DNA of 32,000 nt from Flavobacteriaceae bacterium (GTDB taxonomy: Bacteria; Bacteroidota; Bacteroidia; Flavobacteriales; Flavobacteriaceae), in the NCBI GenBank assembly GCA_965224465.1, contig OZ245049.1, forward strand, positions 30,001 through 62,000. Direction: 5' to 3'. The position numbers and the translations under genes are program-made. This document shows, one piece after another, positions 9,214 to 31,520 of the stretch. The stretch's first letter is position 1; the number at the start of each line of letters is the position of its first letter. A model generated the notes under the pieces. That model saw only the letters and a list, made by a program, of their open reading frames with translations, ran no database searches and was not told where the DNA came from.

Positions 9214-9313
9214 GGATTTTTTCAAAGGAGTGTTTCATAGGAGTAATTGTTGTTAGCTGTCTAATTTATTTGTTTTGATGTGTGTACGATAGTTGTACGA
9301 AGTAAATAGTAGT

Positions 9314-9392: not shown

Positions 9393-9602
9393 GTACTAAC
9401 TTTGATTGCTCAATGCTGTAAAACAAATAAAATAAAAGGGAAGTACGCGTTGAGGTACAATCTTTATTGATGGCTGTTTTATTTGCGAAGATTGATATAG
9501 AGGAGAGTAGCTTTCTTGTACACAAAAAGTTAAACAACAAAAATCACGTACCTTTGTCAATTGTTAAAATCACCAAAACGGGTCAACTTATTACAAAACA
9601 AA

Positions 9603-10510: not shown

Positions 10511-10532
10511 ATCCACTTAAAAAGGGAACTTA

Positions 10533-10590
10533 TACCAAATACATTTCCAAGTGACAGTCTAGAAATGGAGTTTTTGGAATTTAATTGGTA
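10533..10590. mobile_element. Minimal (~58 bp) copy of the F1/F2 MITE-like element
   Basis: TACCAAATACATTTCCAAGTGAC...TTGGAATTTAATTGGTA. The terminal inverted repeats are the same as in the 159-bp copy at 17911-18069. Confidence 0.6.
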
Positions 10591-10600
10591 TCACATGATA

Positions 10601-11859: not shown

Positions 11860-12984
11860 CTTAAATTCAACTAATAAACGCAACTTTTCGATTTGATTCT
11901 ATGATGGTTATATTTTCAAAACAGAAAAGTAGGAAAACCTACCTTTCTTGTCTTGATGGATATGTATCTTACGGTCTCAAATCTCGAAAAAAGAAGTTGT
12001 ATGAAACACATCACCCAAGCGCAAAGATACACAATTTGTTGCATGTTAAAACAAGGTTATAAACAGGTTGAGATAGCAGCTGCTATAGGAAAAGACAAGT
12101 CTGTTATTAGCAAAGAGATTAAGCGTAATTCAGACAAAAGAAATGGAGTTTACAAGCATGAATTAGCCCAAAAAAAGTATGCTAAACGTCATAAAGAAAA
12201 GCCTAAAAGAAAACGCTTTACAGAAGATATTCAACAAGCAATAGAGTTGTTATTGCGAGACGATTATAGTCCTGAGCAAGTAGTTGGTGTCCTAAAAAAA
12301 CAAGGTAAAGAAACGGTGTCTATTGAGCGTATATATCAGCATATTAGGGAAGACAAGAGGAATGATGGTGATTTACATACACACCTTCGCAGACAGGGAA
12401 GGAGATATAGAAAACGTGGCTCATCAAAGGATTCTAGAGGGGTTATAAAGAATCGTATTAGTATAGAACAACGCCCTGAAGTTGTTGAACAAAGAAATCG
12501 ATTTGGAGATTTAGAGGTCGATTTAATCATAGGTAAAAACCATAATCAAGCCATACTTACCGTAAATGATAGAGCTTCTGGAATGCTTAAAATGAAAAAA
12601 GTAAGCTCTAAAGAAGCAGTTGTTGTCACTAAAGCTATCAATGAAATATTAGAAGACTGGAAGCCTTATCTACATACTATAACAGCTGATAATGGAAAAG
12701 AATTTGCAGGCCATGAGCAGGTTGCAGAAAATTTATGTATTGATTACTTTTTTGCGCATCCATATCACTCTTGGGAAAGAGGATCTAACGAAAATTTAAA
12801 TGGTTTGATTAGACAATATTTTGCCAAAGGAAGTGACTTTACAAACCTAACAGATCAAAGAATCAAAGAGGTAGAAACAAAATTAAATAACAGACCTAGG
12901 AAGAGACATAAATATCAAAACCCTATATTTGTAATGGAACAATTATTATTTAACTAAAAGTTGCGTTTGTGACTTGAATTCAGC
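11860..12984 (+). mobile_element. IS30-family insertion sequence, complete copy
   Basis: Imperfect terminal inverted repeats AAATTCAACTAATAAACGCAACTTTT (left) and AAAAGTTGCGTTTGTGACTTGAATTC (right) flank a single transposase ORF. The right end recurs in inverted orientation at 31920-32000. The left boundary is good to about +/-3 nt. Confidence 0.85.
12001..12957 (+). CDS. IS30 family transposase
   Basis: N-terminal HTH (ITQAQRYTICCMLKQGYKQVEIAAAIGKDKSVISKEIKRN) and a DDE core (DLIIGK..TADNGKEF..WERGSNENLNGLIRQY). The MKHITQ start is preferred over the upstream TTG/ATG at 11953. Confidence 0.9.
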   Translation: MKHITQAQRYTICCMLKQGYKQVEIAAAIGKDKSVISKEIKRNSDKRNGVYKHELAQKKYAKRHKEKPKRKRFTEDIQQAIELLLRDDYSPEQVVGVLKKQGKETVSIERIYQHIREDKRNDGDLHTHLRRQGRRYRKRGSSKDSRGVIKNRISIEQRPEVVEQRNRFGDLEVDLIIGKNHNQAILTVNDRASGMLKMKKVSSKEAVVVTKAINEILEDWKPYLHTITADNGKEFAGHEQVAENLCIDYFFAHPYHSWERGSNENLNGLIRQYFAKGSDFTNLTDQRIKEVETKLNNRPRKRHKYQNPIFVMEQLLFN

Positions 12985-13364
12985 AAAGTAAAGGGAGTGT
13001 CTCAAAAATGTAAAATCCTCCGAAACTACCACCAAATATCTTACATAGTGCGGACAGCGTTGGTTTTATGTTTCGTCCAATTTATAGACCCTGAAAAACC
13101 GTTGATTTGATGTTAGTAAAAAAAGATAAAAACAAAATCAACGGTTTGACTCAGAGTAAATTTAGAGTTTATTTCTTTAAACTATACACCACGTGTCATA
13201 TTTCACCGTTACCTGCAAGCACTACAGAAGATAAATTATGCTAAAAAAGAACAACCAACCGCACAAAATGCACGTTTTATTTTGCCATGTAAAGACAAAT
13301 TTATATAGTTTTACTTCTTTCTATTCGCAAATAGAAGTCAAGAAATGATTGCACTCATAGGGAT

Positions 13365-14012
13365 TTATTTTTTGTAGTCTATTGTAACTTTAATCAGAGA
13401 GTAGATATAAGAAAAGATAAATCCAGCTGCAATTACAGGAGCAGTGTATGGAACCAACCATGCCAAAATAAGTGATACGTTAACCAACGCTATTGCTGTA
13501 GCACTTTTGGTCATACTTCTAATCAAATAAGGCATAGGATAGGGCACAAACATAGTTATAGTGTTTGCTACAAATATAATAATTAACATCCAAGTAGGAT
13601 CAAAACTAAATAAATTAGCTAATAGAAGTGCAAATAAAGTGTGACGTATAAGTTCATTAGTAGGTGAGCCTGCTGATTTTGAAATAGCTGGGTCAAGTCT
13701 AGCTACTGATCGTATCAAAATTGCAGCTACAGCAATTAAACCTATAATACCACAAATGATACCATAGTGAAATCCTATAAACATAACAATAATAGTATGA
13801 GATACTGCATCACAAACATTATCCATCCGGGCTCCAAATTCACTTTTAGCATTTAGTTTTATTGCTAGAATACCATCAAGGTCATCCATGATGTTGTTGT
13901 AGATTATCAAAGGGATAATGTACAAGAAGCCACTATCTGAAAATAGTATCACCAAGGGTAAAACGCCAAGGATTGATACAAGGTTTGGGATATTTTTATA
14001 TATTTTATTCAA
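13365..14012 (-). CDS. CDP-alcohol phosphatidyltransferase family protein
   Basis: 215-aa polytopic membrane ORF with DDLDGILA(x11)GARMDNVCD. This is the Dx2DGx2A..Gx3Dx3D signature, with Ile replacing the usual Arg. Confidence 0.85.
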   Translation of the reverse strand: MNKIYKNIPNLVSILGVLPLVILFSDSGFLYIIPLIIYNNIMDDLDGILAIKLNAKSEFGARMDNVCDAVSHTIIVMFIGFHYGIICGIIGLIAVAAILIRSVARLDPAISKSAGSPTNELIRHTLFALLLANLFSFDPTWMLIIIFVANTITMFVPYPMPYLIRSMTKSATAIALVNVSLILAWLVPYTAPVIAAGFIFSYIYSLIKVTIDYKK

Positions 14013-14022
14013 AATATTATTT

Positions 14023-14817
14023 TTATACTATAGTTAATAATGGTCGCTTTGTGTGTAACATGTTCTTTTCACATTCCTGCAAATCTTCTATGGTATCTAT
14101 TTCGTACCAGAAATCATTATTAAAGTAAACACATTCAAAATTTAGACTAGCATCTGTTACCATCTCTGCAAACACGGCCTCATAATAATCATTTACTTTA
14201 CCTAACGAAATCCATGTGTCTAATCGTTTGCTAATCTGGCTCCAAGATTCGGGTGAAAAACTATAAATATTAACGGTCTTAAAATTGGTGTCATTTGTTG
14301 AGTGTTTACCAAGATTAAACGTAGTTACAATCTTAGGTGATTGTTTGTCAATACTTATGGATGTCCCGTTCATCCAAGGTAATATCTTAGAAACAGCAAT
14401 TTTATTTGGTGAAAGCATTTCTTCGAGTAGAGAAGGCTTAAAGATTAAATCACTTTCAATTAAGACGAACGATTCCTTCATTTTTTCTCTTGCCAACCAT
14501 AATGAGTAGATATTGTTTGTTGTTTTATATAATGGACTTACGATATACTCAATTATAATATTTTTGGACACACTTTCAAGGTAATCTCTAATTTGTTGCT
14601 CAAAGGGACCAATAACAATAACTAAGCGTTTAAAATTGTAGAGATGAAGAGTTTCTATAAGCCGTCCTAGAATTTCAATTTCATTAACTCTGGTCAAACA
14701 TTTTGGAGCGTCGTTGGTTAAGGGACTTAAACGGCTCCCTGTACCTGCAGCAAGGACAAGTGCTGTTGTGATTTTTTCTGAGCATTCAGAGTTATTCAAA
14801 TTGTGAATTTGCTTCAT
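14023..14817 (-). CDS. NTP-transferase, LicC-like cytidylyltransferase
   Basis: LAAGTGSRLSPLTNDAPKCL nucleotide-binding loop, NNIYSLW, and a C-terminal WYEIDTIEDL, all as in phosphocholine/phospho-alcohol cytidylyltransferases. Its stop is 10 nt upstream of the next gene's start, so the two form an operon. Confidence 0.8.
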   Translation of the reverse strand: MKQIHNLNNSECSEKITTALVLAAGTGSRLSPLTNDAPKCLTRVNEIEILGRLIETLHLYNFKRLVIVIGPFEQQIRDYLESVSKNIIIEYIVSPLYKTTNNIYSLWLAREKMKESFVLIESDLIFKPSLLEEMLSPNKIAVSKILPWMNGTSISIDKQSPKIVTTFNLGKHSTNDTNFKTVNIYSFSPESWSQISKRLDTWISLGKVNDYYEAVFAEMVTDASLNFECVYFNNDFWYEIDTIEDLQECEKNMLHTKRPLLTIV

Positions 14818-15104
14818 GTAAAATAATAATTTTAAATTAAAAAACTTATATTAATACTGTAATTTGCAGTTGAACTTAGCAAATTAACAGTAGAGAATAG
14901 TACTAGCGTAGACTGCGTAGTTACTCTTTTTTTAATATTCTTAAACAAGTGTGAAACGAACTCTATTTATAATTCAGTGGTAGAATTAGTCAGTTCATTT
15001 TTTCTGATAAATATTTTGCAAATATAGTGATAAATTATTAGAATAAAAACCTCTATTTTAAAACTTTGTTATTTTAGATATCCCTAAGGTAATGTGTCAA
15101 TCTA

Positions 15105-15935
15105 AGGTGCTTAATATCGGTCAATTGAGTTAGAAAATAGAGGTGTCAAATCTCTCAAAATCCTAAGTGTATCGCGTATAGGTTGTAGTAGAATGCAATG
15201 GTCCACTTCATCAAAGAACCCTTTTAGGTCAATATCCATAATATCTTGGTAACCATTATTGACATACTGCTGCCCTTGTAATATTGTTTTTTGGATGTTC
15301 TTTTGAGGTCTAAACCGACCCACGGGAGCACATGAACACTCTAAAATAAAAAGCGGTGAATAATCCAAAACTCAAAGGTTCAAAATTATATTCGAATGGA
15401 ACCATTAATTGTTGGCTTACCACTTGCTGTAACCATCTATCTACTACTGTTGGGATTCCTAAAAGTCTGGTTTTACCCTTTTCTTTTGGAATGCTTACTC
15501 CTAAGATAGAGTTTGGAACATCGCTATTCTTTCGGGCGTTGCAATAATGTGGTTACTTGCCCAAGTAATTATGCCTCTGAATACGATTTATTCATGAGAT
15601 CCTGTTTTTATTGTGTTCTTGTGTGTCTACGCTTAGTTCTGTTCGTCAGTACCGAGATTTGCAGGGTTTTTGCTCATTCCTCAATCGCAAATAATCTTCA
15701 GATAAAACGGCACGGTTTACACCCTTGCGACTTCCTAATGCGTATTCACAGTTTTCCGTTTTATGGAGTTCATGAGAGCTACGGCGTTATTCACTCCCTT
15801 TTATTTTTTTAGAGGTGTTCATGAGAGCTACGCAGTTCAGAACCTTACTCCTGTGCATAAGGGACTTGCGCCCTCTAGATTAATTAATTTCCTTTCCGTA
15901 GTTAAAAGACGTCCATGCTGGTCACACACACACAT
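15105..15935 (-). mobile_element. Decayed, 3'-truncated group II intron remnant
   Basis: On the minus strand there is non-coding structured-looking sequence, then RT motifs, then an abrupt loss of homology near 15105. No RT domains 4-7, maturase or domain V were seen. The 5' boundary is uncertain; a GTGTGTG run at 15923-15934 is one possible intron 5' end. Confidence 0.55.
15111..15560 (-). pseudogene. Group II intron reverse transcriptase pseudogene (N-terminal third only, frameshifted)
   Basis: Minus-strand translation gives SIPKEKGKTRLLGIPTVVDRWLQQVVSQQLMVPFEYNFEPLSFG in one frame. After a ~49-nt insertion it continues as FRPQKNIQKTIL..DIMDIDLKGFFDEVDHCILLQ in another frame (RT domains 1-3). 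A stop occurs at 15111. Confidence 0.75.
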
Positions 15936-16050: not shown

Positions 16051-16104
16051 AGAATTGGCAGAATTGGCAGAATTGGCAGAATTGGCAGAATTGGAAGTAA
16101 TGGA
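16051..16104. repeat. 9-bp tandem repeat (AGAATTGGC) x4 perfect plus 2 or more degenerate units
   Basis: Read directly. The units decay as AGAATTGGA, AGTAATGGA and so on. Confidence 0.9.
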
Positions 16105-17288: not shown

Positions 17289-17910
17289 TGTTTAGAATTA
17301 CATATATGATTGATATAAGCAGTCGTATTATCCGATTATTGCGGTGAAATAATAAGAATCGCATGTAATAAATTCAATTATGCCCTACAATAAATGCTAA
17401 AACACAGATACAATACGAATGTTTATACCGGTTTTACTAACTTATAACTAAAATAGAGATATAGTTCTAGTAACGATACATAATTGTTGAAAGCTATAAA
17501 AAATGACCGACTTGTTTTTAGGTTTGAATGCTTGATTTTAGATAAATTCAATGGATTAGATAAATTAAAAATTTTCATTTGACCGAAAACAATTTGATTT
17601 TAAAGTTTCCTCTTTTCCCTTTTAAAATTGTTCAGAAAAATTACCCTCTGACTAAAATTTAAGAAGTCAATTCAACTAAATTCAACTACGTTTTGGTATA
17701 CCTCATTTAAGTGTGCTTTTGAAAAGAAAAAATGAATATTTTAGAATTGATATATCAAAAAAAAACTTCAAATTTGAATTATAAACGTAAGTAAAAACTA
17801 CAAGAATTAGAATGTGAAAAATAAGACACTATTGCAATAACTGAGGTTTGTGCGGTGCGAACCGTTCAACATGAACATCCTGTTGACTATACCAGTTCAA
17901 AAGATGATAA

Positions 17911-18069
17911 TACCAATTACAATCCAAAATGATTGATGTAAATAGTTTATATTACGTTGTAGCGTTGTTAAAAAACAGAACAATAGCTAAGGCTATCCAT
18001 CCATTTTTCGCCTAGATAAATTAAAAAATAATTCCATTTTTAAACCGTCACTTGGAAATTTAATTGGTA
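17911..18069. mobile_element. MITE-like element (F1 in reverse plus F2) with terminal inverted repeats
   Basis: The left end TACCAATTACAATCCAAAA and the right end TTGGAAATTTAATTGGTA are inverted repeats (about 15 of 18 positions). The element has no coding capacity. The same composite is found reversed at 24635-24738. Confidence 0.7.
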
Positions 18070-18103
18070 TTACACTGAAAAAAAATCTAAAAACCGAATG
18101 GCA

Positions 18104-18685
18104 TTAAAGATTGTTATATTTTTCAAAAGCCTCTTTTTTAGTTTGTTCTATTGTAGAAATGTAAAATCTATATATTCCAGTATTATAATCAAAATGATAA
18201 GTCGCATTACAAAACACTGAATCTTTTATGGAGTACATAGGCATCTCAAAATGAATTTCAGATGCTCGACTATAGGTATGTCTGGTAGCTAATAAATGAA
18301 AATTATCAAGATTTATACTGTCTTTGTTGTTTTTTTTGTACAAATCTGTAATTGTTTTTTTGTTGATTAGAAGATTAATCAAAGTGTCATTCAGTTTTTC
18401 ATAATCCTCTCCTCGCATTTTTTTATCCCTGATTAACAGCAATGTGTATTCCATGTTGTTTCTGGGTTTGGATAAATTAGGAGTTATTTTTAGTATATGA
18501 GTATAATTTCCTAATTGTATTTGTTTATAAAATAGTTTGTCTAGATAGACTTTATAATCTTCTGTTTTTTGTGCTTTTTCTGATTTTTCAGATGATTCTT
18601 TGTGTGTTTTCGGTTTTTCGGTTTTACAACAACACAAACAAAAATTGAAAATTAGTAAGATTAAAAAATAGAATAGCTTTTTCAT
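18104..18685 (-). CDS. Hypothetical lipoprotein
   Basis: The MKKLFYFLILLIFNFCLCCCK signal/lipobox start at 18685 is preferred. The track ORF extends to 18781 into repeat F3-A. No family recognised. Confidence 0.6.
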   Translation of the reverse strand: MKKLFYFLILLIFNFCLCCCKTEKPKTHKESSEKSEKAQKTEDYKVYLDKLFYKQIQLGNYTHILKITPNLSKPRNNMEYTLLLIRDKKMRGEDYEKLNDTLINLLINKKTITDLYKKNNKDSINLDNFHLLATRHTYSRASEIHFEMPMYSIKDSVFCNATYHFDYNTGIYRFYISTIEQTKKEAFEKYNNL

Positions 18686-18754
18686 AATATTATTTCTAAA
18701 TTCGACGTGAATATAAGTTGTTTTTATAGAATTTCTTATATTTATATTTGTTTG

Positions 18755-19140
18755 CCCTGTGTTTTTTACAACGATTGCCAAACGTATCCTACAATAAAAC
18801 TCTAATTCCTTCCCTTTACACGTCTAAAAACGCCGAATAAACAATATAAAAACCATTATAAACACCTGAGAAATACTAAATACACCTAAATTTTCCCGTA
18901 AAAACTACCAAACCATCTACTATTAAGGTAGCACGTTTAGGATAAGAACAATAACGCTTGTTGAGGTTCTGGAAAAGAGAGGTTAAGGGGTGTGTTTTTT
19001 ACATAAAAAAATTTAATTGTTAGTATGCGAAAACAATTTATTTTGTATATTTGAAGAAAGCAGTTTACTGTATATAGTGAACGGAATACTAAATAAGTAC
19101 TTAGCCCTGTATTGTAGTTATGGAGGTATTAGCAATAATA
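18755..19140 (+). repeat. Repeat family F3, copy A (promoter-bearing intergenic module)
   Basis: Shares ACAACGATTGCCAAAC, CGTAAAAACTAC, CACGTTTAGGATAAGAA..CTTGTTGAGGTTCT, TTTTGTATATTTGAAG and a downstream leader with copies B and C. Confidence 0.85.
19046..19053 (+). promoter_or_regulatory. Putative Bacteroidota -7 promoter box TATATTTG (TAnnTTTG)
   Basis: Lies within a 16-nt block (TTTTGTATATTTGAAG) that is identical in all three F3 copies, about 105 nt upstream of the proposed radical SAM start. Confidence 0.5.
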
Positions 19141-19157
19141 CAAAAAGAACGATCCCA

Positions 19158-20402
19158 TTGAAAAACATCTTATTCATTTCTTTCGATTTCTTAAGAAAAA
19201 GTGACCCCAAAACATCTTTAGCTATTGGTTCTATTTTAGCTTATTTACACTCAAAAAAAGATTACGGTTTAAAATTTAAAGCTTTTCATCATACTGTTGA
19301 CATGTATACTTTAAATGTAAACACGTCCGTAAGTGATATTTTAAATAGTATGCCATATACTGATTATAGTTCTTATCAATATATTGCAATTTCAGCCTAT
19401 GTATGGAGTGAGAAGTATTTGAATGACTTAATGTTTGTATTAAAAAGGGATTATTCTTTTACAGGGGAGTTTGTTTTAGGTGGCTATCAAATATCATATT
19501 CTAACAATCCTGAATTAGAATATCCTTTATGTAATTTATTTATTGATGGTTATGGTGAACAATCTGTTTACGAAATATTAATAGGTAAACACAAATCAGG
19601 TGTTATAAAATCAGTTATTGACTACAATTCTATTCCTTCTCCATACCTGTCTAAAATCATAACCGTAAACCCTTTTCAGGCCAAGGTTAGAATTGAGACA
19701 AAACGAGGTTGTCCTTATAATTGTACTTTTTGTGCTCATAAAGATTTGACAAACAAAAAAGTTTTAGTAAGAGAAGTAAGTATGTGTTTCGATGAATTAT
19801 TACTTTTTAAAAACCTAAAGGTTCAGAAAATAAATATTTTAGACCCTATTTTTAATGCTGGTAACGGATATTTAGAATTTCTTGAGGAAATGGTCCGAAT
19901 AGGTTTGGATTCAGAAATTTCAATTCAAGTTAGGTTTGAAACTATTTTCGGAGACGATGGAGATCGGTTTTTAGATTTATGTGGAAAATTAAATATTCAC
20001 CTTGAGTTTGGTCTTCAAACGGCTTCTAGGGAGGAGAGTATTTTGATTAAGAGAAAGAATCGCCCAGAAAAAATAATTTCAGCGATGAATAAACTGAATT
20101 CTAGAGGCATAAGTTATGAAGTTAGTTTGATATATGGTTTGCCATCTCAAACAGTTGAATCTTTTAAAGATAGCATCAAATTTATACAAAGGAACGGTTG
20201 TGATAATATTACAGCCTTTCCTTTGATGCTATTGAAAGGGACTGAATTATTTCTGGAGAAAGAAAAGTATAATTTTAAAGAAAAGAAAATTAATGATTAT
20301 GATATTCCTGTTGTCGTAAGTAGTACTAGTTTTAATGAAAAAAATTGGCGTGAAATGAAAGAATTGGCTGAACTTTTATCCTATGATATAGTTAGGGTAT
20401 AA
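19158..20402 (+). CDS. Radical SAM protein with N-terminal Rossmann-like (B12-binding-domain-like) region
   Basis: CxxxCxxC cluster motif in ETKRGCPYNCTFCAHKD, and GLQTAS..IYGLPSQT as in HemN/B12-rSAM families. A TTG start (MKNILFISFDF) is proposed because the upstream part of the track ORF (19017-) overlaps the repeat and promoter. No in-frame ATG occurs until about residue 95 of the track ORF. Confidence 0.75.
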   Translation: MKNILFISFDFLRKSDPKTSLAIGSILAYLHSKKDYGLKFKAFHHTVDMYTLNVNTSVSDILNSMPYTDYSSYQYIAISAYVWSEKYLNDLMFVLKRDYSFTGEFVLGGYQISYSNNPELEYPLCNLFIDGYGEQSVYEILIGKHKSGVIKSVIDYNSIPSPYLSKIITVNPFQAKVRIETKRGCPYNCTFCAHKDLTNKKVLVREVSMCFDELLLFKNLKVQKINILDPIFNAGNGYLEFLEEMVRIGLDSEISIQVRFETIFGDDGDRFLDLCGKLNIHLEFGLQTASREESILIKRKNRPEKIISAMNKLNSRGISYEVSLIYGLPSQTVESFKDSIKFIQRNGCDNITAFPLMLLKGTELFLEKEKYNFKEKKINDYDIPVVVSSTSFNEKNWREMKELAELLSYDIVRV

Positions 20403-20495
20403 AGTGAAATTTCTATAATTCAGATTCTTTGAGTAAACAAGTCCAAATTCTCCTAGTATTATTAACTACATCAAAACAATAAAAGGGAGAGGTTA

Positions 20496-20815
20496 CCCTA
20501 TATTTTCTACAACGATTGCCAAACTGTCCCCTAAATAAGCCCGCAATTCCTTTCCTTTATACATCAAAAAAAGCCGAAAACACATTCTAAATAAGCTAGT
20601 AAACCCCTGGGGAATATTACAATCCCCTAAAATATCCCTGTAAAAACTACGAGAATATCTAATGTTGAAACAGCACGTTTAAGGTAAGCACTAGTAGCCT
20701 TGTTGAGGTTTTTAGTAACACGGGTTAACGCTTTAAAACTTTTATATAAAATAATTAAATTAGAAGTATGTAAAAAGGGTGTTTTGTATATTTGAAGGAT
20801 GCTGTATGGAGAGTG
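20496..20815 (+). repeat. Repeat family F3, copy B
   Basis: Same conserved blocks as copy A, in the same order. More divergent between the blocks. Confidence 0.8.
20797..20804 (+). promoter_or_regulatory. Putative -7 promoter box TATATTTG
   Basis: Identical 16-nt block TTTTGTATATTTGAAG, about 70 nt upstream of the ATG at 20874. Confidence 0.5.
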
Positions 20816-20873
20816 GATGGTGTTTTTGAAAAGGGATTAAGATTAGCTAATTAAATAGATTATTATTTACAAA

Positions 20874-21917
20874 ATGACCAATAAAATTGAAATTAATTGT
20901 CCTAAATGTTCAGGGAAAATGAACGTTCCAGAAGGAAAACACATTAAGTTTGTTTGCCCTTCATGTAAAGAAAATCTTGAATTTGATGATCGTTGCGATA
21001 CTGATAAAAAGAGCCCGGAATTCGAAAATAAAGAAGATAAAGGTTCGTTAAGTGATACCTTGATAAATTATACGAGTTGGTTTGTAGTACTTCCAGTTTT
21101 TATAATTGCTCACAAATTACTTCCCAACCCTGATTGGATTTTTAATTTAGATAGATTTCTTATAGGAATATTGATAATAGTAGTATTACGATTTGTATTA
21201 AAAAAGTTTAGAGTACTTGTAATTGGAGCACTTGTAGTTTCTGTGATTTGGGGTGTATACGGAAGTTTTGTTGGTGATTATGGATTTGTTGAGGTGTACC
21301 GAGATTATAAAAAGATGGTTTTTACAATGCTGAAAAACCCACATCCAGAAAGAATTGTACTTGCGACCTTAAAACCATTTCAAAACAAGGCGGCTATTAA
21401 AAAGGCGATAGATTTTGAGAAACCTCTTGTTAGAAATTTTGCGGTTTCTTCCTCTAAAAATTTCACAAAAAACATAAAAAATCATAAGGAATACAGAACA
21501 ATTATTCAATGTTTATCTATATTTAAAGAAATAAAGGGAAAATGGGAGTATGTAAGTGATCCAATAAGTCGCGAATATTTTGCAAAGGCGAGTGAATCAA
21601 TTGATCACTTTTCTGGCGATTGTGATGATTATTCAATCTTAATGGCTGCCTGTATAAAGGCAATTGGTGGAACTACAAGGTTAATACATACGAATGGGCA
21701 CCTATATCCTGAATTATTAATAGGGACAGAAAATGATTTTATGACTATTAATCGTTTGGTGAAAAGGAAGCTCTTTAGCGATGAAAGTAACAATAAAAGA
21801 TTAAAATACCATATAGATCAATATGACCAGGTGTGGCTAAATTTAGATTATACGGCTAATTATCCAGGAGGACCATTTATGTCTGAAAGCATATTGGGAG
21901 TGTTGACTTTAGATTAA
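20874..21917 (+). CDS. Zn-ribbon / transmembrane / transglutaminase-like cysteine protease domain protein
   Basis: N-terminal CPKC..CPSC zinc ribbon and three hydrophobic segments. The C-terminal domain has GDCDDYSILMAACIKAIGG ... GHLYPELL ... WLNLDYT, a Cys-His-Asp arrangement typical of the transglutaminase core. Confidence 0.7.
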   Translation: MTNKIEINCPKCSGKMNVPEGKHIKFVCPSCKENLEFDDRCDTDKKSPEFENKEDKGSLSDTLINYTSWFVVLPVFIIAHKLLPNPDWIFNLDRFLIGILIIVVLRFVLKKFRVLVIGALVVSVIWGVYGSFVGDYGFVEVYRDYKKMVFTMLKNPHPERIVLATLKPFQNKAAIKKAIDFEKPLVRNFAVSSSKNFTKNIKNHKEYRTIIQCLSIFKEIKGKWEYVSDPISREYFAKASESIDHFSGDCDDYSILMAACIKAIGGTTRLIHTNGHLYPELLIGTENDFMTINRLVKRKLFSDESNNKRLKYHIDQYDQVWLNLDYTANYPGGPFMSESILGVLTLD

Positions 21918-21949
21918 AAATCTAAATCTAATTATGTAAGAAAAACAAA

Positions 21950-22003
21950 GGCTATCGTTAAAAACAACCTATTTATATCGATCATTTTGGATTTTAATTG
22001 GGA
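21950..22003 (+). repeat. Repeat family F1, short copy
   Basis: GGCTATCGTTAAAAACAACCTATTTATATCGATCATTTTGGATTTTAATTGG aligns with 24690-24738 and 9318-9392. It abuts F3 copy C. Confidence 0.7.
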
Positions 22004-22013
22004 GTACACCTCT

Positions 22014-22320
22014 AAAAACGCCAAAAAAATAATCCAAAGGAACTAGTAAACAACGGAAAGCTACTATATACTCTTAGATTCTTCACGTAAAACCCACGAT
22101 ACGATCTAGTAGTAAAACACCACGTTTAGGATAAGAATAAACACTCTTGTTGAGGTTCTATAAAACAGTGGCTACTAGTTGAAAACTTTTCTAAAAAAAT
22201 AATTAAAAGGTTAGTGTGCGAAAAAGGATGTCTTTTGTATATTTGAAGCACGCTGTATGCCGTATATGACGGATTTATAAATAAATACACCGCTATTGTA
22301 GCTATTACGGAAATAACGTC
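22014..22320 (+). repeat. Repeat family F3, copy C (lacks the ACAACGATTGCCAAAC left block)
   Basis: ACACCTCTAAAAACGCC.. through CACGTTTAGGATAAGAATAAACACTCTTGTTGAGGTTCT, TTTTGTATATTTGAAG and a leader (GCTGTATG..TATATGACGGA..CTATTGTAGCTATTACGG) that is homologous to copy A. Confidence 0.85.
22238..22245 (+). promoter_or_regulatory. Putative -7 promoter box TATATTTG
   Basis: Identical 16-nt block, about 165 nt upstream of the ATG at 22408. Confidence 0.5.
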
Positions 22321-22407
22321 AAATTTCGGCTTGTTATTGTGGATATAGAGGTGTTGTGTGTCAGCTAAAAAAAAGACCGTGGATAAGCTCAAAGAAGATA
22401 TAATATA

Positions 22408-22974
22408 ATGAACGAATTAACAACCAAATATTTCACGGATAGAAAAGAATGGAGAAAGTGGCTCGAAACTAATTTTGAGACAGAAGATGCTGTTTGGTTG
22501 GAGTATCCAGTTAAGAGGTCTGGTAAAAAACGAATCTTGTATAATGATGCGGTTGAAGAAGCCCTTTGTTTTGGATGGATTGATAGTATTAATAAATCAC
22601 GAAACGAAGATACTACTATTCAAAGATTTTGTAAGAGAAGAAAAAACGCTACATTCTCACAGCCAAATATTGAACGACTGAACTGGCTTTTTGAAAATAA
22701 TTTGATTCATAGCTCAATTAATAATGAAGTTCTACAAATAATTCAACTAAAATTCGTTTTTCCAGAAGATATAATAAAGAAATTGGAGTCAGATAAGCTT
22801 GTTTGGGAAAATTATCAAGCCTTTTCTGAGCCATACAAACGGATTCGAATTGCATATATTGATAGTGCAAGAAAAAGACCTGATGAATTTGACAAACGAT
22901 TGAATAACTTTATTAAAAAGACAAAAAAGAATAACCTGATTAAGGGATTCGGGGGAATTGATAAATACTATTAA
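22408..22974 (+). CDS. YdeI/OmpD-associated family protein
   Basis: 188 aa with WRKWLE..AVWLEY..YNDAVEEALCFGWIDS, characteristic of the YdeI (OmdA) family. Paralog of 24917-25492. Confidence 0.75.
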   Translation: MNELTTKYFTDRKEWRKWLETNFETEDAVWLEYPVKRSGKKRILYNDAVEEALCFGWIDSINKSRNEDTTIQRFCKRRKNATFSQPNIERLNWLFENNLIHSSINNEVLQIIQLKFVFPEDIIKKLESDKLVWENYQAFSEPYKRIRIAYIDSARKRPDEFDKRLNNFIKKTKKNNLIKGFGGIDKYY

Positions 22975-23044
22975 CAATAAGACTACTGTCGGAACTTTGT
23001 TTAGTCACTAAAAAAAGACCGCACACAAACTTAAAAAAAATAAT

Positions 23045-23623
23045 ATGAAGAAGAAAATATATGTGTTTCTATTTGATGGGTATTCTGATTGGGAAATATC
23101 TTATCTAAGTCCAGAGATTACTAAAGATGACCGTTTTGATTTGATTTATTTCTCGGAAACGGGAGATAAAGTAACCTCAATGGGTGGCTTACAAGTGATT
23201 CCAACGACATCACTCAATGAAATAAAAATTGAAGAAGTCGAGATGTTAATTCTTCCAGGAGGAGTAGCTTGGGAGAAGAGAGAGATAACAACGATTAATA
23301 ATTTGGTTTCAGAACTATTTGAAAAGGGGAAAACAATTTCCGCAATTTGTGGGGCAACTTTTTATTTAGGACAGTTGGGGATTTTAGACAACCTGAAACA
23401 CACAAGCAACGATTTGAATTATCTAAAAGCTGTCGTTCCAGAGTATAGTGGACAAGAAAATTACCAAAATAAATTAGCAGTGACCGACAAAAATATTATT
23501 ACAGCTAATGGAATTGCCCCGATTGAATTTGCGACTGAAATTTTTAAGAAAACAGCATTAAAATCTGATGATGAAATTGAAAAATGGTTTCAATTATTCA
23601 AAAATGGTATATGGAGTGAATAA
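23045..23623 (+). CDS. DJ-1/PfpI family (type 1 glutamine amidotransferase-like) protein
   Basis: 192 aa with LILPGG and a nucleophile-elbow-like ISAICGATFYLG. Confidence 0.8.
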   Translation: MKKKIYVFLFDGYSDWEISYLSPEITKDDRFDLIYFSETGDKVTSMGGLQVIPTTSLNEIKIEEVEMLILPGGVAWEKREITTINNLVSELFEKGKTISAICGATFYLGQLGILDNLKHTSNDLNYLKAVVPEYSGQENYQNKLAVTDKNIITANGIAPIEFATEIFKKTALKSDDEIEKWFQLFKNGIWSE

Positions 23624-23834
23624 CAAAGCAGAACACACTCCAATGTATAAAAATAATAGCCGAAACAGTAGTAAATTCAAGGGTTGTAGCCCGCTTCAAT
23701 TTCATCGTGAATTGGAAGATTTGAGTTCCGCAGTCGGCTACTATTTTTATGCCTAGCGTTACCTGCAAGGCGAAGAGAGTACCTGCGATAATTATAGGTC
23801 AACGATAGAAGATTTAAAAAAGAAGATAACTGAA

Positions 23835-24632
23835 ATGAAAGTATTAAAAGATAAAATTGCACTTGTAACAGGCGGAACACGAAATGTCGGAAAAGGAATT
23901 GCTCTGGCACTTGGAGAAGCAGGAGCTACAGTTTATGTAACAGGAAGAAGTATTACTGAAAATGATGTCAAAGGTATTACAAAAGCAGGGGGGAAAGGAA
24001 TTGCTGTTATTTGTAATCACGAAAACGATGCTGAAGTTAAAGCCGTATTTGAACACATCGAGAATATGGAAGGTAAATTGGATATTCTTGTTAATAACGC
24101 TTGGGGAGGATATAATCGACTAAGAAATAGAAAAGAATATTCAGGATTTAAATGGAAAGCTCCTTTTTGGGAACAGCCATTAGATTTATGGAACGAAATG
24201 AATAATGTTGGAGTTCGCTCAAATTACGTATCAAGTTTCTACGCTTCTAAATTGATGCTAAAACAAAAGCAAGGATTAATTGTGAATATCTCTTTTTATG
24301 CCAGTCAGAAATATTATGGAAATGTAATTTATGGCGTTGCAAAAGCAGCAGTTGATAAAATGACAATGGATATGTCAGAAGAATTGAAAAAAAATAAAAT
24401 CACTTGTGTTTCGCTTTATCCAGGATATATCGATGACAAGAAAAGTAAGAATAAACCTAATCCTAAAAAAGAGACATCTATATTTGTTGGAAGAGCAATT
24501 GCAGCACTTTCTTCTGATAAAAATTGTATAAATAAAACAGGACAAATATTAGTAGCGGCTGAACTTGCAAAAGAATATAATTTCACTGATATTGACGGAA
24601 TTCAGCCAGAACCTTTTGATAAATTGGAATAA
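23835..24632 (+). CDS. SDR family oxidoreductase
   Basis: TGGTRNVGKGIALAL cofactor motif, NNAWGG, and YGVAKAA (Yx3K). Confidence 0.85.
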   Translation: MKVLKDKIALVTGGTRNVGKGIALALGEAGATVYVTGRSITENDVKGITKAGGKGIAVICNHENDAEVKAVFEHIENMEGKLDILVNNAWGGYNRLRNRKEYSGFKWKAPFWEQPLDLWNEMNNVGVRSNYVSSFYASKLMLKQKQGLIVNISFYASQKYYGNVIYGVAKAAVDKMTMDMSEELKKNKITCVSLYPGYIDDKKSKNKPNPKKETSIFVGRAIAALSSDKNCINKTGQILVAAELAKEYNFTDIDGIQPEPFDKLE

Positions 24633-24634
24633 TA

Positions 24635-24738
24635 CCCACTACATTTCCGAGTGACTGTTTAGAAATGGAATTGTTTTTTAACAACGCTAGAACGTAAAAC
24701 AACCTATTTATATCGATTATTTTGGGTTTTAGTTGGTA
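24635..24738. mobile_element. MITE-like element (F2 reversed plus F1), shorter copy
   Basis: CCCACTACATTTCCGAGTGACTGTTTAGAAATGGAATTG...AACAACGCTAGAACGTAAAACAACCTATTTATATCG..TTTGGGTTTTAGTTGGTA. It is the reverse-complement arrangement of 17911-18069 and starts 3 nt after the SDR stop. Confidence 0.65.
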
Positions 24739-24916
24739 TAGGCCAGCAAGTATCAAAAGCTAAAATTTAGGGACGTTGATGCTCAAATTGAAAGTTTGTT
24801 CAAATAATAGACACCAGCAAGCCAATTAAATGGGTTTGCTTAAAAATACAAACAAATTAAATCGCTACGCAACTTAGAAAGGCCGTTGTAAGCCATTATA
24901 GAAACCAAATTCACGA

Positions 24917-25551: not shown

Positions 25552-26301
25552 CCCGCTGCGCAAAGCCGCTGCGCAAAGTCTCCCGACTTAGCGCCACCAT
25601 ATTACTCACGTTAACAAAGAAAAAGAATAACAAAAAATGAAAGAAGGTTACATTATAAGAGATCAAGAAAAAATATATTTTATTACAGCTACGGTAGTGG
25701 ACTGGGTAGATGTGTTTACAAGGAAATCGTACAAAGATGTAATTATAGAAAGTTTGGAGTTTTGTATTCAAAAAAAGGGAATGATACTTTATGGCTATGT
25801 AATTATGAGCAATCATATTCATTTAATAGTGCAATCAGAAAATGGTAAACTGTCGGATTTATTGAGAGATTTTAAGAAATTTACGGCATCAAGCATTTTA
25901 GAGAAAATACAAAGCGAACCAGAAAGCAGGAGAGAATGGATGCTAGAATGCTTTAAAAAGGCTACTAAAACGCATAATAGAAATAAAAATCATCAATTCT
26001 GGCAATATGGCAACCATGCAGAAGAAATATATTCGGTAAAGTTTATGTGGTCAAAACTGGATTATATTCATTTGAACCCTGTAAAGGCAGGTGTGGTAGA
26101 AAAAACGGAACATTATATATATTCAAGTGCAACAAATTATATAAACAATGAAGGATTACTTCCAGTGACACTTGTGGACAATTCAGTAATTGAAGTATTA
26201 AAAAAAGCATCGATTAAGAAATTGAATCAAGAATAAAAATGAATGTAGGAAAAATAACACATAAAAACAACGCTCAAAGTCGGGAGACTTTGCGCAGCGG
26301 G
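25552..26301 (+). mobile_element. REP-flanked Y1 (IS200/IS605-superfamily, RAYT-like) transposase unit, intact copy
   Basis: CCCGCTGCGCAAAG(CCGCTGCGCAAAG)TCTCCCGACTT at the left and AAGTCGGGAGACTTTGCGCAGCGGG at the right form ~25-bp inverted terminal palindromic sequences around one Y1 transposase ORF. Confidence 0.8.
25637..26236 (+). CDS. Y1 tyrosine transposase (REP-associated tyrosine transposase-like)
   Basis: 199 aa with an HUH motif in MSNHIHLIV and a catalytic-Tyr region YIYSSATNY, plus the LDYIHLNPVKAG segment common in this family. Confidence 0.8.
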   Translation: MKEGYIIRDQEKIYFITATVVDWVDVFTRKSYKDVIIESLEFCIQKKGMILYGYVIMSNHIHLIVQSENGKLSDLLRDFKKFTASSILEKIQSEPESRREWMLECFKKATKTHNRNKNHQFWQYGNHAEEIYSVKFMWSKLDYIHLNPVKAGVVEKTEHYIYSSATNYINNEGLLPVTLVDNSVIEVLKKASIKKLNQE

Positions 26302-26307
26302 TAGTTC

Positions 26308-26365
26308 GCCAAATGTATTACTTTTATGTTTGAAAAAAAGTAAACATAAAAGTAATACATTTGGC
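26308..26365. repeat. Perfect 24-bp stem hairpin (10-nt A-rich loop)
   Basis: GCCAAATGTATTACTTTTATGTTT (26308-26331) is the exact reverse complement of 26342-26365. Duplicated at 30736-30793. Confidence 0.95.
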
Positions 26366-26445
26366 TAATTGATAAATGAAAATCAGTACTTTTAACTTGC
26401 CCTACGATTTTTTATACTGGGCGTTGTATATAACTAAAAAAGACT

Positions 26446-27072
26446 ATGAAAATAAAAATACTTGGAATTACATTGGGTTTAATTGCCTTACTTAGTTGTA
26501 GTGAAAAAGATGAAAATAAAGTAGAATTGCAAGAAGTTCAGAATGAAACACCTCAAGTACTTGACCAAAATACTGATTACAAATTAAGCTCTATTTCCAA
26601 AAGATACAGTTCTGATATTATTTCAAAATTATATAATGAAGCTCTTGAGAAAAGTTCAAAACTCAATCAACTTAATGATGAAATAAATGGCGTTTTAGAA
26701 ACTAAAAATGATAGCGTTTTAAATTACTCGAAATTTTCACAAACAAATACTAATTATTGGACAACAGCAAATAGTTATGTAAATCAGATACAAGATTCTG
26801 TTCTTAAAGAATCAACTCTTGAAGTTATCAAGGTTCTCGAATCAACATACAAGAATAAAATGTCTATTTACGAGCAGAAACTAATAGAAATTGACAAAAA
26901 GACAATTTCATTAAATGACCAATTGATATTAATGAAATTAGTTGTTACTGAGCCAATGATGAAAAATTATCAGCGAAATGAAAAACCTAACATTAAATCT
27001 TTAGAAATGATTATTAGTGAATATGACAGACTTATAAAAGAAACTGAAGAATACACTAATTTTGAAAAATAG
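26446..27072 (+). CDS. Hypothetical coiled-coil lipoprotein (copy 1)
   Basis: 208 aa with the signal/lipobox MKIKILGITLGLIALLSCSE. The near-identical copy at 30873-31499 differs by 2 aa. Confidence 0.7.
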   Translation: MKIKILGITLGLIALLSCSEKDENKVELQEVQNETPQVLDQNTDYKLSSISKRYSSDIISKLYNEALEKSSKLNQLNDEINGVLETKNDSVLNYSKFSQTNTNYWTTANSYVNQIQDSVLKESTLEVIKVLESTYKNKMSIYEQKLIEIDKKTISLNDQLILMKLVVTEPMMKNYQRNEKPNIKSLEMIISEYDRLIKETEEYTNFEK

Positions 27073-27092
27073 CAACGTACAAACAACTAAGT

Positions 27093-27319
27093 TCCGCTGC
27101 GCAAAGTCTCCTGACTTAGCGCCACCATATTGCTCACATTAGCAAAGGAAAACAAATTATATAAACAATGAAGGATTACTTCCAGTGACACTTGTAGACA
27201 ATCCTGTAATTGATTATTAAAAAATCCACGATTAAGAAATTGAATCAAGAATAAAATCGAATGCAGGAAAAATAACACATAAAAACAAAGCTCAAAGTCG
27301 GGAGACTTTGCGCAGCGGG
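27093..27319 (+). mobile_element. Non-autonomous deletion derivative of the RAYT unit (~227 bp)
   Basis: Keeps both terminal palindromes, the subterminal GCGCCACCATATTGCTCACATTA and the last ~110 nt of the transposase gene region. The interior is deleted. Confidence 0.8.
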
Positions 27320-27371
27320 GAAAGAGGCCGAAAAAGTTAAGAAAGTTTCACCAAAAAAAGAAGAAAGTAAA

Positions 27372-28235
27372 ATGAGTGAAATAAAAATATTCCAAGCTAA
27401 AGACAATAAAGTTGAAGTTACTGTTCAATTTGATAACGAAACTGTATGGTTAAATAGGAATCAACTTGCTACTTTATTTGATAGAGATGTAAAGACTATT
27501 GGTAAACATATAACTAATGTTTTTAAAGAAGGTGAATTAAGTAAAGAAGCAACTGTCTCAAAATATGCGACAGTTCAGAAAGAAGGAGATAGAGAAGTAA
27601 CTAGAGAAGTAGCACATTATAATCTAGATGTAATAATATCTGTAGGTTATAGAGTTAAATCACAAAGAGGTACACAATTTAGAATATGGGCAAGTAGTAT
27701 TTTAAAAGACTTTTTAGTAAAAGGATATAGTGTTAACGAAAAAAGATTGACTCAAAAAGAACAAGAAATACAAATATTAAAAGATGGTATCACCATTTTA
27801 AGTAGAGCTATTGAAGAAAAGACAGAAAATAATGAATGGTTAACAATTTTCGCTAAAGGACTAAGCTTATTAGATGATTACGACCACGAAGAATTAGATG
27901 CTAAAGGATTAACTACAACAGAAGCAAATTACCCTAGTTTAGAAGATTATCAAAAAATAATCAATCAAATGCTAGCAGAATTTGATAGTGATGTGTTTGG
28001 AAAAGAAAAAGACAAAAGTTTTCAAAGTTCTGTAGCACAAATAACGAAAGGGTTTGGAGCAAATGATTTTTATACTTCATTGGAAGAAAAAGCAGCAATG
28101 CTTTTATATTTAGTGGTAAAAAACCATTCGTTTGTAGATGGCAATAAACGAATAGCAGCAGCTTGTTTTCTGAAATTTTTACAACAAAACAATATGCTTT
28201 TTAATAGTAAGCGTACGGAGAACTACATCTTGTAA
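27372..28235 (+). pseudogene. RhuM-family / Doc (Fic-fold) fusion gene, interrupted at codon 279 by IS66
   Basis: N-terminus IKIFQAKDNKVEVTVQFDNETVWLNRNQLATLF..VGYRVKSQRGTQFRIWAS (RhuM). C-terminus HSFVDGNKRIAAA (Doc-type HxFxDGNKR). From 28207 the reading frame runs into the IS end, giving a chimeric ..KRTENYIL tail. Confidence 0.85.
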
Positions 28236-28285
28236 GAAGTTAAAAATAATCTAATTTTTGCATCTAAACAAAAACGAAAATATAA

Positions 28286-28639
28286 ATGTTAGGATTAGGT
28301 ACAGAACACACGTATTATTATCACTTATCTGCAGTTGATATGCGAAAAGGATTTAATGGATTAAGTGGATTAGTTAGTGAGCACATGGAACAAGAGCGAG
28401 ATAGAAATAGTGTTTATGCATTTATCAATAAGCAAAAAAATAAACTAAAACTTCTTCATTGGCGACCTGGAGGATTTGTACTGTATTATAAACGATTGGA
28501 ACGAGGTATTTTTGAGCTTCCAAAATACGACATTGAAGATGGATTAGTAGTTTTGAGTTATACCCAAATGGTTATGGTTTTAGACGGAATTAGTATTATA
28601 AATACTCAGAAAAACGAACGTTATTTAGAGGCTAAATAA
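28286..28639 (+). CDS. tnpB: IS66 family accessory protein TnpB (Orf2)
   Basis: 117 aa with DMRKGFNGLSGLV and LKLLHWRPGGFVLYYKRLE, typical of IS66 Orf2. Confidence 0.85.
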   Translation: MLGLGTEHTYYYHLSAVDMRKGFNGLSGLVSEHMEQERDRNSVYAFINKQKNKLKLLHWRPGGFVLYYKRLERGIFELPKYDIEDGLVVLSYTQMVMVLDGISIINTQKNERYLEAK

Positions 28640-28682
28640 TTCAATAAAACTGTAGGTTTTACCTGCTATTTAGTCTTGTTTT

Positions 28683-30185: not shown

Positions 30186-30221
30186 TCAAGGGTGTACTTT
30201 ACCGTACGCTTACTTTTAATA

Positions 30222-30349
30222 GCCAACAACAACCAATAATTAGTAATGATACACTAGCCACTTTAACGCTGTTTATTGCTTCAAGTAAACCAGATGAAAT
30301 GGAAACAGTAAAACGATTAGTAATTAGCGTACTCAATAGAAATAAATAA
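30222..30349 (+). pseudogene. 3' fragment of the RhuM-Doc gene displaced by IS66
   Basis: Joining 28206 to 30222 restores the frame: ..QQNNMLFNS QQQPIISNDTLATLTLFIASSKPDEMETVKRLVISVLNRNK*. The reconstructed protein is 320 aa. Confidence 0.85.
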
Positions 30350-30396
30350 ATAAAATGACAGATGCAACTATAATATCAAAAATATGGAACCTTGTA

Positions 30397-30729
30397 CCCG
30401 CTGCGCAAAGTCTCCCGACTTAGCGCCACCATATTGCTCACATTATCAAAGAAAAAATATAAGAAGATTACATCGTAAGAGATCAAGAAAAGATACATTT
30501 TATTACAGCTACTGTTAAAGATGTAATTATAGAAAGCTTAGAGTTTTGTATTCAAGTGCAACAAATTATATAAACAATGAAGGGTTACTTCCAGTGACAC
30601 TTGTGGGCAATCCAGTAATTGATTATTAAAAACATCAACGATTAAGAAATTGAATCAAGAATAAAAATGAATGTAGGAAATTAACACATAAAAACAAAGC
30701 TCAAAGTCGGGAGACTTTGCGCAGCGGGT
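30397..30729 (+). mobile_element. Non-autonomous deletion derivative of the RAYT unit (~333 bp)
   Basis: Both terminal palindromes are present. The remnant coding sequence has two internal deletions (junctions GCTACTGTT|AAAGATGTAATT and TGTATTCAA|GTGCAACAAATT). Confidence 0.85.
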
Positions 30730-30735
30730 AGTTCG

Positions 30736-30793
30736 CCAAATGTATTACTTTTATGTTTGAAAAAAAATAAACATAAAAGTAATACATTTGGCT
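30736..30793. repeat. Second copy of the perfect 24-bp stem hairpin
   Basis: Same arms as 26308-26365. The loop differs by one base. Confidence 0.95.
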
Positions 30794-30872
30794 AATTGAT
30801 AAATGAAAATCAGTACTTTTAACTTGCCCTACGATTTTTTATACTGGGCGTTGTATATAACTAAAAAAGACT

Positions 30873-31499: not shown

Positions 31500-31520
31500 C
31501 AACGTACAAACAACTAAGTT

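Follow-up and report, generated by a model that had tools for sequence, protein, structure and literature searches.

Background

Homologous upstream regions that stand before non-homologous genes have been described as putative mobile promoters (Matus-Garcia, Nijveen & van Passel 2012; PMC3575422). Here we describe F3, a repeat of which three copies (A, B, and C) lie on the same strand of a 32,000-nt stretch of marine flavobacterial DNA (32% G+C; the whole stretch is called the window below), each in front of a gene unrelated to the other two. F3 and the putative mobile promoters are alike in being non-coding and found in one genome, and in having neither a transposase nor an Rfam family; the role proposed for the latter is the rewiring or enabling of expression (PMC3575422). 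F3 differs from them in being older, more diverged (68-72%), longer (300-380 nt), and triplicated in tandem order, with two copies fused to cargo at a fixed position. The published screen demanded at least 80% identity over at least 50 nt within -150 to -50 of the start codon (PMC3575422), and F3 falls short of this threshold: the best 50-column windows gave 76%, 84%, and 76%, and the 84% window (A-C pair) is located at -228 to -179 / -289 to -240, outside that interval.

Gene-less cassettes that carry a sense promoter have been reported from Vibrio superintegrons (10.1101/2023.11.21.568050) and from oral Treponema integrons (PMC6557892). As F3 would do, these non-coding elements of a few hundred base pairs, placed between cassettes, activate promoter-less cassettes on their 3' side. 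They are, however, bounded by attC sites with an intI gene nearby, whereas the edges of F3 do not score as attC, no integrase was found among the scanned open reading frames (ORFs) of the window (29 of the 64 ORFs of at least 60 aa), and copy B is native to a housekeeping-like gene. The Pc-attI platform of integrons is also similar to F3 in its order of parts (promoter, short non-coding stretch, G|TT junction with the bar marking the joint, and first cassette). An integron has one attI beside intI, in contrast to the three copies of F3, with no intI among the scanned ORFs. Two direct repeats precede the junction in attI1, and two direct repeats precede it likewise in the corresponding stretch of copy C.

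Miniature inverted-repeat transposable elements (MITEs) of the Correia and ERIC type (cited in PMC3575422) are, like F3, dispersed repeats that provide the genes next to them with promoters. Unlike them, F3 is not palindromic and has no terminal inverted repeats, and its few known copies are all in one orientation relative to the genes. In the rAID-1 elements of Bacteroidales, which were described as integron-like, a XerD-family recombinase accompanies arrays of immunity genes (bioRxiv 10.1101/471110). They share with the F3 locus a same-strand array, repetitive intergenic sequence, and an origin in Bacteroidota; this likeness is one of layout only. Neither the rAID-1 recombinase nor immunity-type domains were detected among the 29 window ORFs scanned. 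Thus, the resemblance to recombinase-associated Bacteroidales arrays that a preliminary description of the window had pointed out holds for the architecture; the recombinase and the immunity genes are missing from the window.

Results and discussion

Three copies of F3 upstream of unrelated genes

Probably, though we say so with much reserve, the F3 copies form one family of paralogous promoter regions, and the module is a reused ("mobile") promoter supplying acquired promoter-less genes. The sample consisted of the three window copies and five core copies in three relatives (contigs L015, L017, and L018), and copy counts refer to the window and the related loci. With self-BLAST, the window copies were 69-72% identical in pairwise comparison (A 18752-19064 with B 20493-20805, 71%, E 5e-35; A 18817-19121 with C 22005-22305, 72%, E 4e-36; B 20558-20808 with C 22005-22259, 69%, E 9e-20), and the alignments were colinear and nearly gap-free over 250-313 nt. 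The three co-oriented copies with ordered conserved blocks of the preliminary description were therefore recovered, with the edges corrected to those in Table 1. Its details of the sequence were also correct: the 16-mer TTTTGTATATTTGAAG and the 12-mer CTTGTTGAGGTT are identical in A, B, and C, each with exactly three occurrences in the window against 0.15-0.17 expected; ACAACGATTGCCAAAC is restricted to A and B; and the homology of A and C continues into the leader, ~70-100 nt 3' of the promoter. Both invariant runs are above chance (P = 0.003 for a second run of at least 12, by shuffling of conserved versus variable columns). Copy C is without the first ~65 nt, and a half copy of an intergenic palindromic repeat ('X', see the last section) is found in that place. 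The downstream genes were confirmed as unrelated by Pfam (Radical_SAM; Zn-ribbon with a weak Transglut_core; OmdA/YdeI).

No further copy was found in the window at E<=10 with an nhmmer profile of the three copies. The 'weaker partial matches' that had been noticed at 9425-9470 and 13020-13075 escaped this search, and their local alignments were no better than those of shuffled sequences (p 0.06-0.95); since these matches are at chance level, the idea that an IS30 element landed in a fourth F3 copy is unsupported. The pattern CACGTTTARG-N14-24-CTTGTTGAGGTT had no match in 185,579 species genomes, and its single metagenome match was rejected as chance (inside a sucB gene). The pattern TTGTTGAGGTT-N60-88-TTGTATATTTG matched four genomes, of which 0/4 were confirmed by nhmmer, and the pattern scan of the viral collection gave nothing.

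A discrete module with defined ends before unrelated genes, in a window rich in mobile DNA (IS30, IS66, a nest of repetitive extragenic palindromic (REP) sequences with REP-associated tyrosine transposase (RAYT)-like genes, and a reverse-transcriptase fragment), might also be a MITE or a solo insertion sequence (IS) end with an outward promoter, such as Correia or ERIC, and the star-like phylogeny of the four full copies (see below) would agree with this. We consider it improbable. Terminal inverted repeats were absent (5' ends against reverse-complemented 3' ends, p >= 0.15 in 10/10 pairs), copy A had no BLAST match in plasmid and phage records, and F3 resembled none of the IS copies in the window by self-BLAST. 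Moreover, the copies are 25-30% diverged, which is the age of the species split and unlike a recently active element, and the synteny between copy B and its gene is preserved from genome to genome. The lack of plasmid, phage, and window-IS similarity also speaks against F3 as an end fragment of a known IS, integrative and conjugative element, or prophage, a possibility raised in the preliminary description.

Another way to obtain similar upstream regions is the convergence of independent promoters under one transcription factor, with the transglutaminase-like, ion channel, radical SAM, and YdeI/DJ-1 genes as its regulon. As a regulon would have it, conservation of the core and of the 12-mer is much higher than that of their surroundings, and the core alone is found before an Ion_trans gene in L017 and L018; nevertheless, the private substitutions of the copies trace to one ancestral sequence. 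Homology that is colinear over 250-313 nt, with E values from 1e-20 to 1e-36, refutes convergence as the sole explanation, and we give this reading hardly any credence. Co-regulation may well be a consequence of the duplication.

Predicted core promoter

The full copy (A, 377 nt) opens with a 5' block of 65 nt that B also has; a body of ~180 nt comes next, and after it the 12-mer, a stretch rich in A+T, a core of ~45 nt (TAGTATGCGAAAAGG..TTTTGTATATTTGAAG), and the leader. The body is strikingly G-poor on the + strand (9-11% G versus 23-26% C). The box TATATTTG, exact in 3/3 window copies, matches the TAnnTTTG box of sigma-A, which occupies -12 to -5 in Flavobacterium psychrophilum (PMC9723704); the -7 promoter consensus that had been read in the conserved 16-mer is thus correctly assigned. 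Because the -7 box is so placed in Flavobacterium, transcription starts were predicted at the positions in Table 1, and the start codons follow them by 100 nt (A), 75 nt (B), and 158 nt (C), each copy being located directly upstream of a + strand gene as had been stated. A -33-like element, TATG or TGTG (TRTG), is present 18 nt upstream of the -7 box and is one mismatch from TTTG. The -33 consensus of Bacteroidota is TTTG/TTG, spaced about 19 nt from the -7 box.

A regular-expression search of 180 kb (the window and related loci) retrieved eight core copies, all of them (8/8) on the coding strand and 5' of a gene. The box TATATTTG was exact in 7/8; the exception was the L018 copy before the transglutaminase-like gene, which has TTTCGTATATTTGAAT. 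In the mechanism that we propose, each copy would supply a primary-sigma (sigma-A, Bacteroidota-type) promoter (TRTG, 18 nt, TATATTTG), and transcription would begin ~5 nt past the -7 box and read through a leader of 75-160 nt into the downstream gene. The strongly conserved ~45-nt core promoter could serve for expression in marine flavobacteria.

Leaders of 75-160 nt are long for bacteria, and the A/C-type leader element is also 92% conserved in L017; both points would suit a small RNA or a cis-regulatory RNA common to the copies, such as a riboswitch-like leader. F3 is non-coding and without RNA-structure signal. All six frames were closed by stops in every copy; no match to F3 was found in Rfam at the gathering score or E<=1; the minimum free energy of A and B on both strands was no better than that of dinucleotide shuffles (z +0.7 to +1.3); and the consensus fold of the three leaders had only -2.7 kcal/mol with 2/11 pairs compensatory (three sequences only). 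Furthermore, most of the conservation is 5' of the predicted start (250 nt of homology upstream of it), and the leader of copy B is unrelated to the others. The shared RNA leader of the preliminary description is therefore very unlikely. As for the leader element itself (~50-75 nt, also at 151-225 of L017), it matched nothing in Rfam, folded into no convincing structure, and contains no ORF in copy C.

Copy B as the native copy and the age of the triplication

The metagenomic contigs L015, L017, and L018 were reached via homologues of the transglutaminase-like protein encoded behind copy B. A full F3 is located directly 5' of the orthologue in L015 (163-508, nhmmer E 4e-63; protein 86% identical), and in L017 (77%, F3 at 431-618) and L018 (74%, F3 at 9793-9893) the distal part of F3 has decayed with the core promoter intact. 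A second core copy is present in L017 and L018 before the next gene, which encodes an Ion_trans channel. Because the orthologues in all three relatives carry F3, copy B is a native, vertically inherited promoter region; its orthology is shown by these alignments, and the notion that copy B and its gene form a shuffled cassette has to be abandoned.

The F3 of L015 is equally close to A, B, and C (74-75% identity), and it matches the majority in 64/79 two-against-one columns, as in a star phylogeny with private substitutions derived from one ancestral sequence. At four-fold degenerate sites of the orthologous genes, the window was 75% identical to L015 and 50% identical to L017. Since the identity to L015 is ~75% both in F3 and at the four-fold sites, the F3 body evolves at close to the neutral rate, and the triplication dates back roughly as far as the divergence from the L015 lineage. 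The 12-mer CTTGTTGAGGTT is identical in L015 and is kept in 10/12 positions in L017. Visible selection is confined to the ~45-nt core and the 12-mer (near -95), and the other ~250 nt are a decaying relic of duplication.

In our proposal, the module would be native to the transglutaminase-like gene (copy B) and would have been copied to two more places at about the time of the divergence from the nearest relative in the sample. Note that a 68-nt non-coding piece (window 17835-17902, L015 2620-2688) is 80% identical between the two and differs in its position relative to the transglutaminase-like gene, which indicates rearrangement around this locus. A synteny walk via the NTP-transferase relatives (L011-L014) showed only 13215-15089 as shared, and thus F3 was not reached.

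Acquired genes behind copies A and C

The closest homologues of the radical SAM protein behind copy A are from Nonlabens (65% identical), where F3 is not present. For the YdeI and DJ-1/PfpI genes behind copy C, the proteins belong to clusters of at least 90% identity that span Flavobacteriales and Marinilabiliales, and the DNA (22353-23636) was 94% identical to L008-L010 and 91% identical to Ancylomarina (L019), all with the same left edge GTTGTGTGTCAGC; DJ-1 alone (23011-23646) was 92% identical in Flagellimonas (L020). F3 was not found upstream of the YdeI/DJ-1 genes in L008-L010, L019, or L020, where other sequence is present. These comparisons show that the cargo is foreign and that the YdeI/DJ-1 block was acquired horizontally, and recently, from other bacteria.

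In L019 and L020, the YdeI/DJ-1 genes belong to arrays in which small genes of unrelated kinds (glyoxalase, SnoaL, GyrI-like, RidA, and others) follow one another on the same strand, separated by imperfect palindromes of 70-230 nt that start with ..AAC.. and end with ..CCGTT|; some of these are repeated within an array at 82-92%. No integrase is located within 5 kb of the arrays. They are probably integron cassette arrays of the CALIN type (clusters of attC sites lacking integrases), with attC-type sites. Upstream of the L020 array (908-1723), a tRNA-like sequence, read by eye, is followed by a decayed resolvase-like reading frame.

Copies A and C align to the same terminal position, GAGGTR|TT (..TATGGAGGTA|TTAGCAAT and ..TATAGAGGTG|TTGTGTGT). 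On the radical SAM side, the A-C homology ends at 19128 and the homology to Nonlabens begins at 19129, where the Nonlabens sequence is CGTTAGCAATAATA; on the YdeI side, the homology to L008 and L019 starts at 22353, exactly at the end of copy C. By these alignments, two different cargoes are shown to be fused to one fixed position of the module. Moreover, the leader element of L017 (159-207) again borders unrelated DNA after ..GGGGTG|TT, and copies A and B begin at G|TT. Site-specific capture would be expected to leave such coincidences. The promoter-reuse explanation would have copies A and C joined at GAGGTR|TT to cargo without a promoter of its own, i.e., the radical SAM gene and the YdeI and DJ-1/PfpI integron-type cassettes, and would make them ready-made expression platforms for acquired genes.

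The main rival to promoter reuse as the origin of the copies is an integron-like system, in which F3 would be either a gene-less promoter cassette or a Pc-attI-like landing pad with crossover at GAGGTR|TT. The cargo behind C is of the integron type, with the same genes in same-strand arrays with attC-like palindromes in L019, L020, and L008. The YdeI block always starts with G|TTGTGT, A and C end at the same position before TT, and A and B begin with G|TT; the first bases of copy B (TACCCTA) are complementary to the region of the radical SAM stop codon (TAGGGTA). Besides the gene-less sense-promoter cassettes of Vibrio (10.1101/2023.11.21.568050) and Treponema (PMC6557892), integrons have been reported in Bacteroidota (PMC8618304).

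The tests of the F3 edges gave a different picture. The attC models were home-made from about a dozen training sites (L019/L020/L008) in ~7 families with very different spacers. In leave-one-out evaluation, the right-arm position weight matrix placed the L019/L020 sites themselves in the top 0.8% or better of window positions, but the F3 edges only at the 6-27% quantile; the gapped hidden Markov model of attC right arms had no match at any F3 edge; and the hairpin duplex-energy scan at the edges was not significant (p 0.08-0.8), its power being low even on positive controls. As for CCCTRTRTT as a core site, five matches were found, two of them inside IS30, and this candidate was discarded as uninformative. 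No tyrosine recombinase or Phage_integrase-type match was obtained among the scanned ORFs of the 32-kb window, and four genomes show vertical inheritance of copy B with its gene. The triplet GTT is common, and the equivalent 3' edge of copy B was placed by eye (MAFFT left it unaligned). By contrast, the YdeI/DJ-1 block has one and the same left edge in the window (22353, G|TTGTGT), L008, and L019, and in the latter two this edge is located 3' of an attC-like arm; a cassette boundary is thus found for the cargo and not for F3. On balance, we regard an integron-like origin of F3 as unlikely. The cassette array suggested in the preliminary description holds in that YdeI and DJ-1/PfpI behind C are integron-type and shared with the Ancylomarina and Flagellimonas arrays, and fails in that F3 does not score as attC.

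A more specific form of this rival, to which we assign a slightly smaller chance still, makes F3 the 'promoter plus attachment site' unit of a gene-capture system of Flavobacteriaceae: the leader end ..TATTGTRG-TAT-GAGGTR|TT would be attI-like or a divergent attC, an integron-type integrase encoded elsewhere would insert there promoter-less cassettes that circulate in Bacteroidota, and the unit would have been multiplied into several independently expressed capture slots, in contrast to the single Pc-attI of classical integrons. If the junction were a recombination site, the locus would reveal gene capture of an integron-like kind, with its expression platforms multiplied, in a phylum whose integrons have received little study.

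Weighing of promoter reuse

The mobile promoter before unrelated genes, which the preliminary description had listed among its options, seems the best reading of the sequences. Several points weigh against it. The 5' edges of A and B and all 3' edges are at a GTT/ATT triplet and adjoin integron-type cargo, which hints at site-specific recombination and not at random duplication. The -33 element is TRTG and not the consensus TTTG, and both the promoter activity of F3 and its start sites are predicted. Between the A/C-type leader and the L017 piece, identity is 92% although neutral sites between the window and L017 are saturated; the leader must then have a function that promoter reuse does not name. 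Finally, the manner in which the F3 copies were made is something we infer.

F3 offers a clear example of promoter reuse, a phenomenon with documented precedents. Acquired genes need transcription to be useful, and the locus offers a concrete, datable route of promoter reuse for foreign genes in Flavobacteriaceae: an acquired radical SAM gene and an acquired YdeI and DJ-1/PfpI pair, the latter 91-94% identical across orders of Bacteroidota, are each fused, at one fixed position, to a copy of a resident promoter region. The feature that stands out is the fixed fusion point beside integron-type cargo.

Features of the locus

Table 1. Positions of F3, its parts, the adjoining genes, and other features (window coordinates unless a contig is named).
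Feature	Position	Strand	Remarks
F3 copy A	18752-19128	+	Full length: 5' block, G-poor body, 12-mer, core promoter, A/C-type leader; self-BLAST, alignments
F3 copy B	20493-~20824	+	Upstream region of transglutaminase-like gene; leader unlike A and C; 3' edge approximate
F3 copy C	22005-22352	+	5'-truncated; longest leader, with internal direct repeat TATTGTAGCTAT / TATTGTGGATAT
12-mer CTTGTTGAGGTT	A 18957-18968, B 20699-20710, C 22146-22157	+	~-101..-90 from predicted start; candidate protein-binding site
Core promoter A, TAGTATGCGAAAA..TTTTGTATATTTGAAG	19017-19056	+	TATG 19024-19027; TATATTTG 19046-19053; predicted start ~19058
Core promoter B	20760-20797	+	-7 box 20787-20794; predicted start ~20799
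Core promoter C	22208-22248	+	-7 box 22238-22245; predicted start ~22250
A/C-type leader element	C 22266-22342, A 19080-19131	+	C part 92% identical over 49 nt to L017 159-207
Lipoprotein-like gene	18104-18685	-	Divergent, upstream of copy A; ORF list; product is a singleton protein cluster
B12-binding radical SAM gene	19158-20402	+	Behind copy A; TTG start; Pfam, NCBIfam
Zn-ribbon / membrane / transglutaminase-like gene	20874-21917	+	Behind copy B; widespread in Flavobacteriaceae
YdeI (22408-22974) and DJ-1/PfpI (23045-23623) block	22353-23636	+	Behind copy C; begins with GTTGTGTGTCAGC
Imperfect palindrome after DJ-1	23638-23750	+	Candidate attC-like site; duplex scan -15.1 kcal/mol, empirical p 0.0025
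Cassette-like array, L019	3520-8570		Ancylomarina salipaludis SAXA01000018
Cassette-like array, L020	1724-8055		Flagellimonas aquimarina QGEG01000001
Repeat 'X'	3-105, 9312-9395, 10528-10595, 17908-18074, 21961-22008, 24630-24740		21961-22008 is a half copy (families D11, D14, D15, I7)
Reverse-transcriptase fragment	15111-15368		
RhuM and Fic protein	27372-28235		
IS66 TnpB/TnpC pair	28286-30185		

Downstream of the YdeI/DJ-1 block, the best + strand match to the attC right arm in the window ends 30 nt before a second YdeI gene (24887). The SDR gene at 23835-24632 belongs to a protein cluster (at least 90% identity) that crosses phyla, including Desulfobacterales and Cytophagales, and its coding DNA (23833-24625) was 89% identical to L023 (5999-6785); the contigs are from unrelated settings and the homology stops at the start and stop codons. 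Because the homology to L023-L025 covers the coding sequence only, this comparison is silent on a cassette edge.

In Nonlabens sp. (JBDVDQ010000014, L006), a different repeat of 60-80 nt (5833-5934, 7427-7709, and 8374-8438) with the palindrome CCAGTTTGTAACTGG stands before the radical SAM homologue and before each of the two genes that follow; it is a separate case of a repeated upstream element and unrelated in sequence to F3. Upstream of this repeat locus are genes for a HAD protein and a 210-aa protein, and a DprA-like gene.

Other repeats and mobile DNA in the window

Members of the repeat family 'X' are 110-165 nt long and contain nested inverted repeats (TACCAATTAAA..TCCAAGTGA ... TCATnTTGGA..TAATTGGTA). 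In the cases with a known neighbouring gene, 'X' is located on the 3' side of that gene in a constant relative orientation. The F3 region as a whole is flanked by two 'X' copies (17908-18074 and 24630-24740) that are inverted relative to each other. The family might be REP- or terminator-like, or attC-like with AAT/ATT replacing AAC/GTT.

At 25566-31919, REP-like inverted repeats of 29-32 nt (CCGCTGCGCAAAGTCTCCCGACTTAGCGC) surround an IS200-like Y1 transposase gene (RAYT-like, 25637-26236) and truncated copies. A duplication of 1.06 kb (26120-27182 and 30549-31608, 98% identical) carries a 208-aa ORF with no Pfam match. An IS30-family element is located at 11953-12984, and its 81-nt end recurs inverted and 100% identical at 31920-32000; since this end is repeated at the right edge of the window, a second IS30 copy is indicated.

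Tandem repeats were found at three places: ~19 perfect 8-mers (CAGTAAGG) at 6478-6629, between an HlyD-family gene and a 126-aa ORF; two units of 110 nt at 7236-7455; and the 9-mer AGAATTGGC at 16051-16103.

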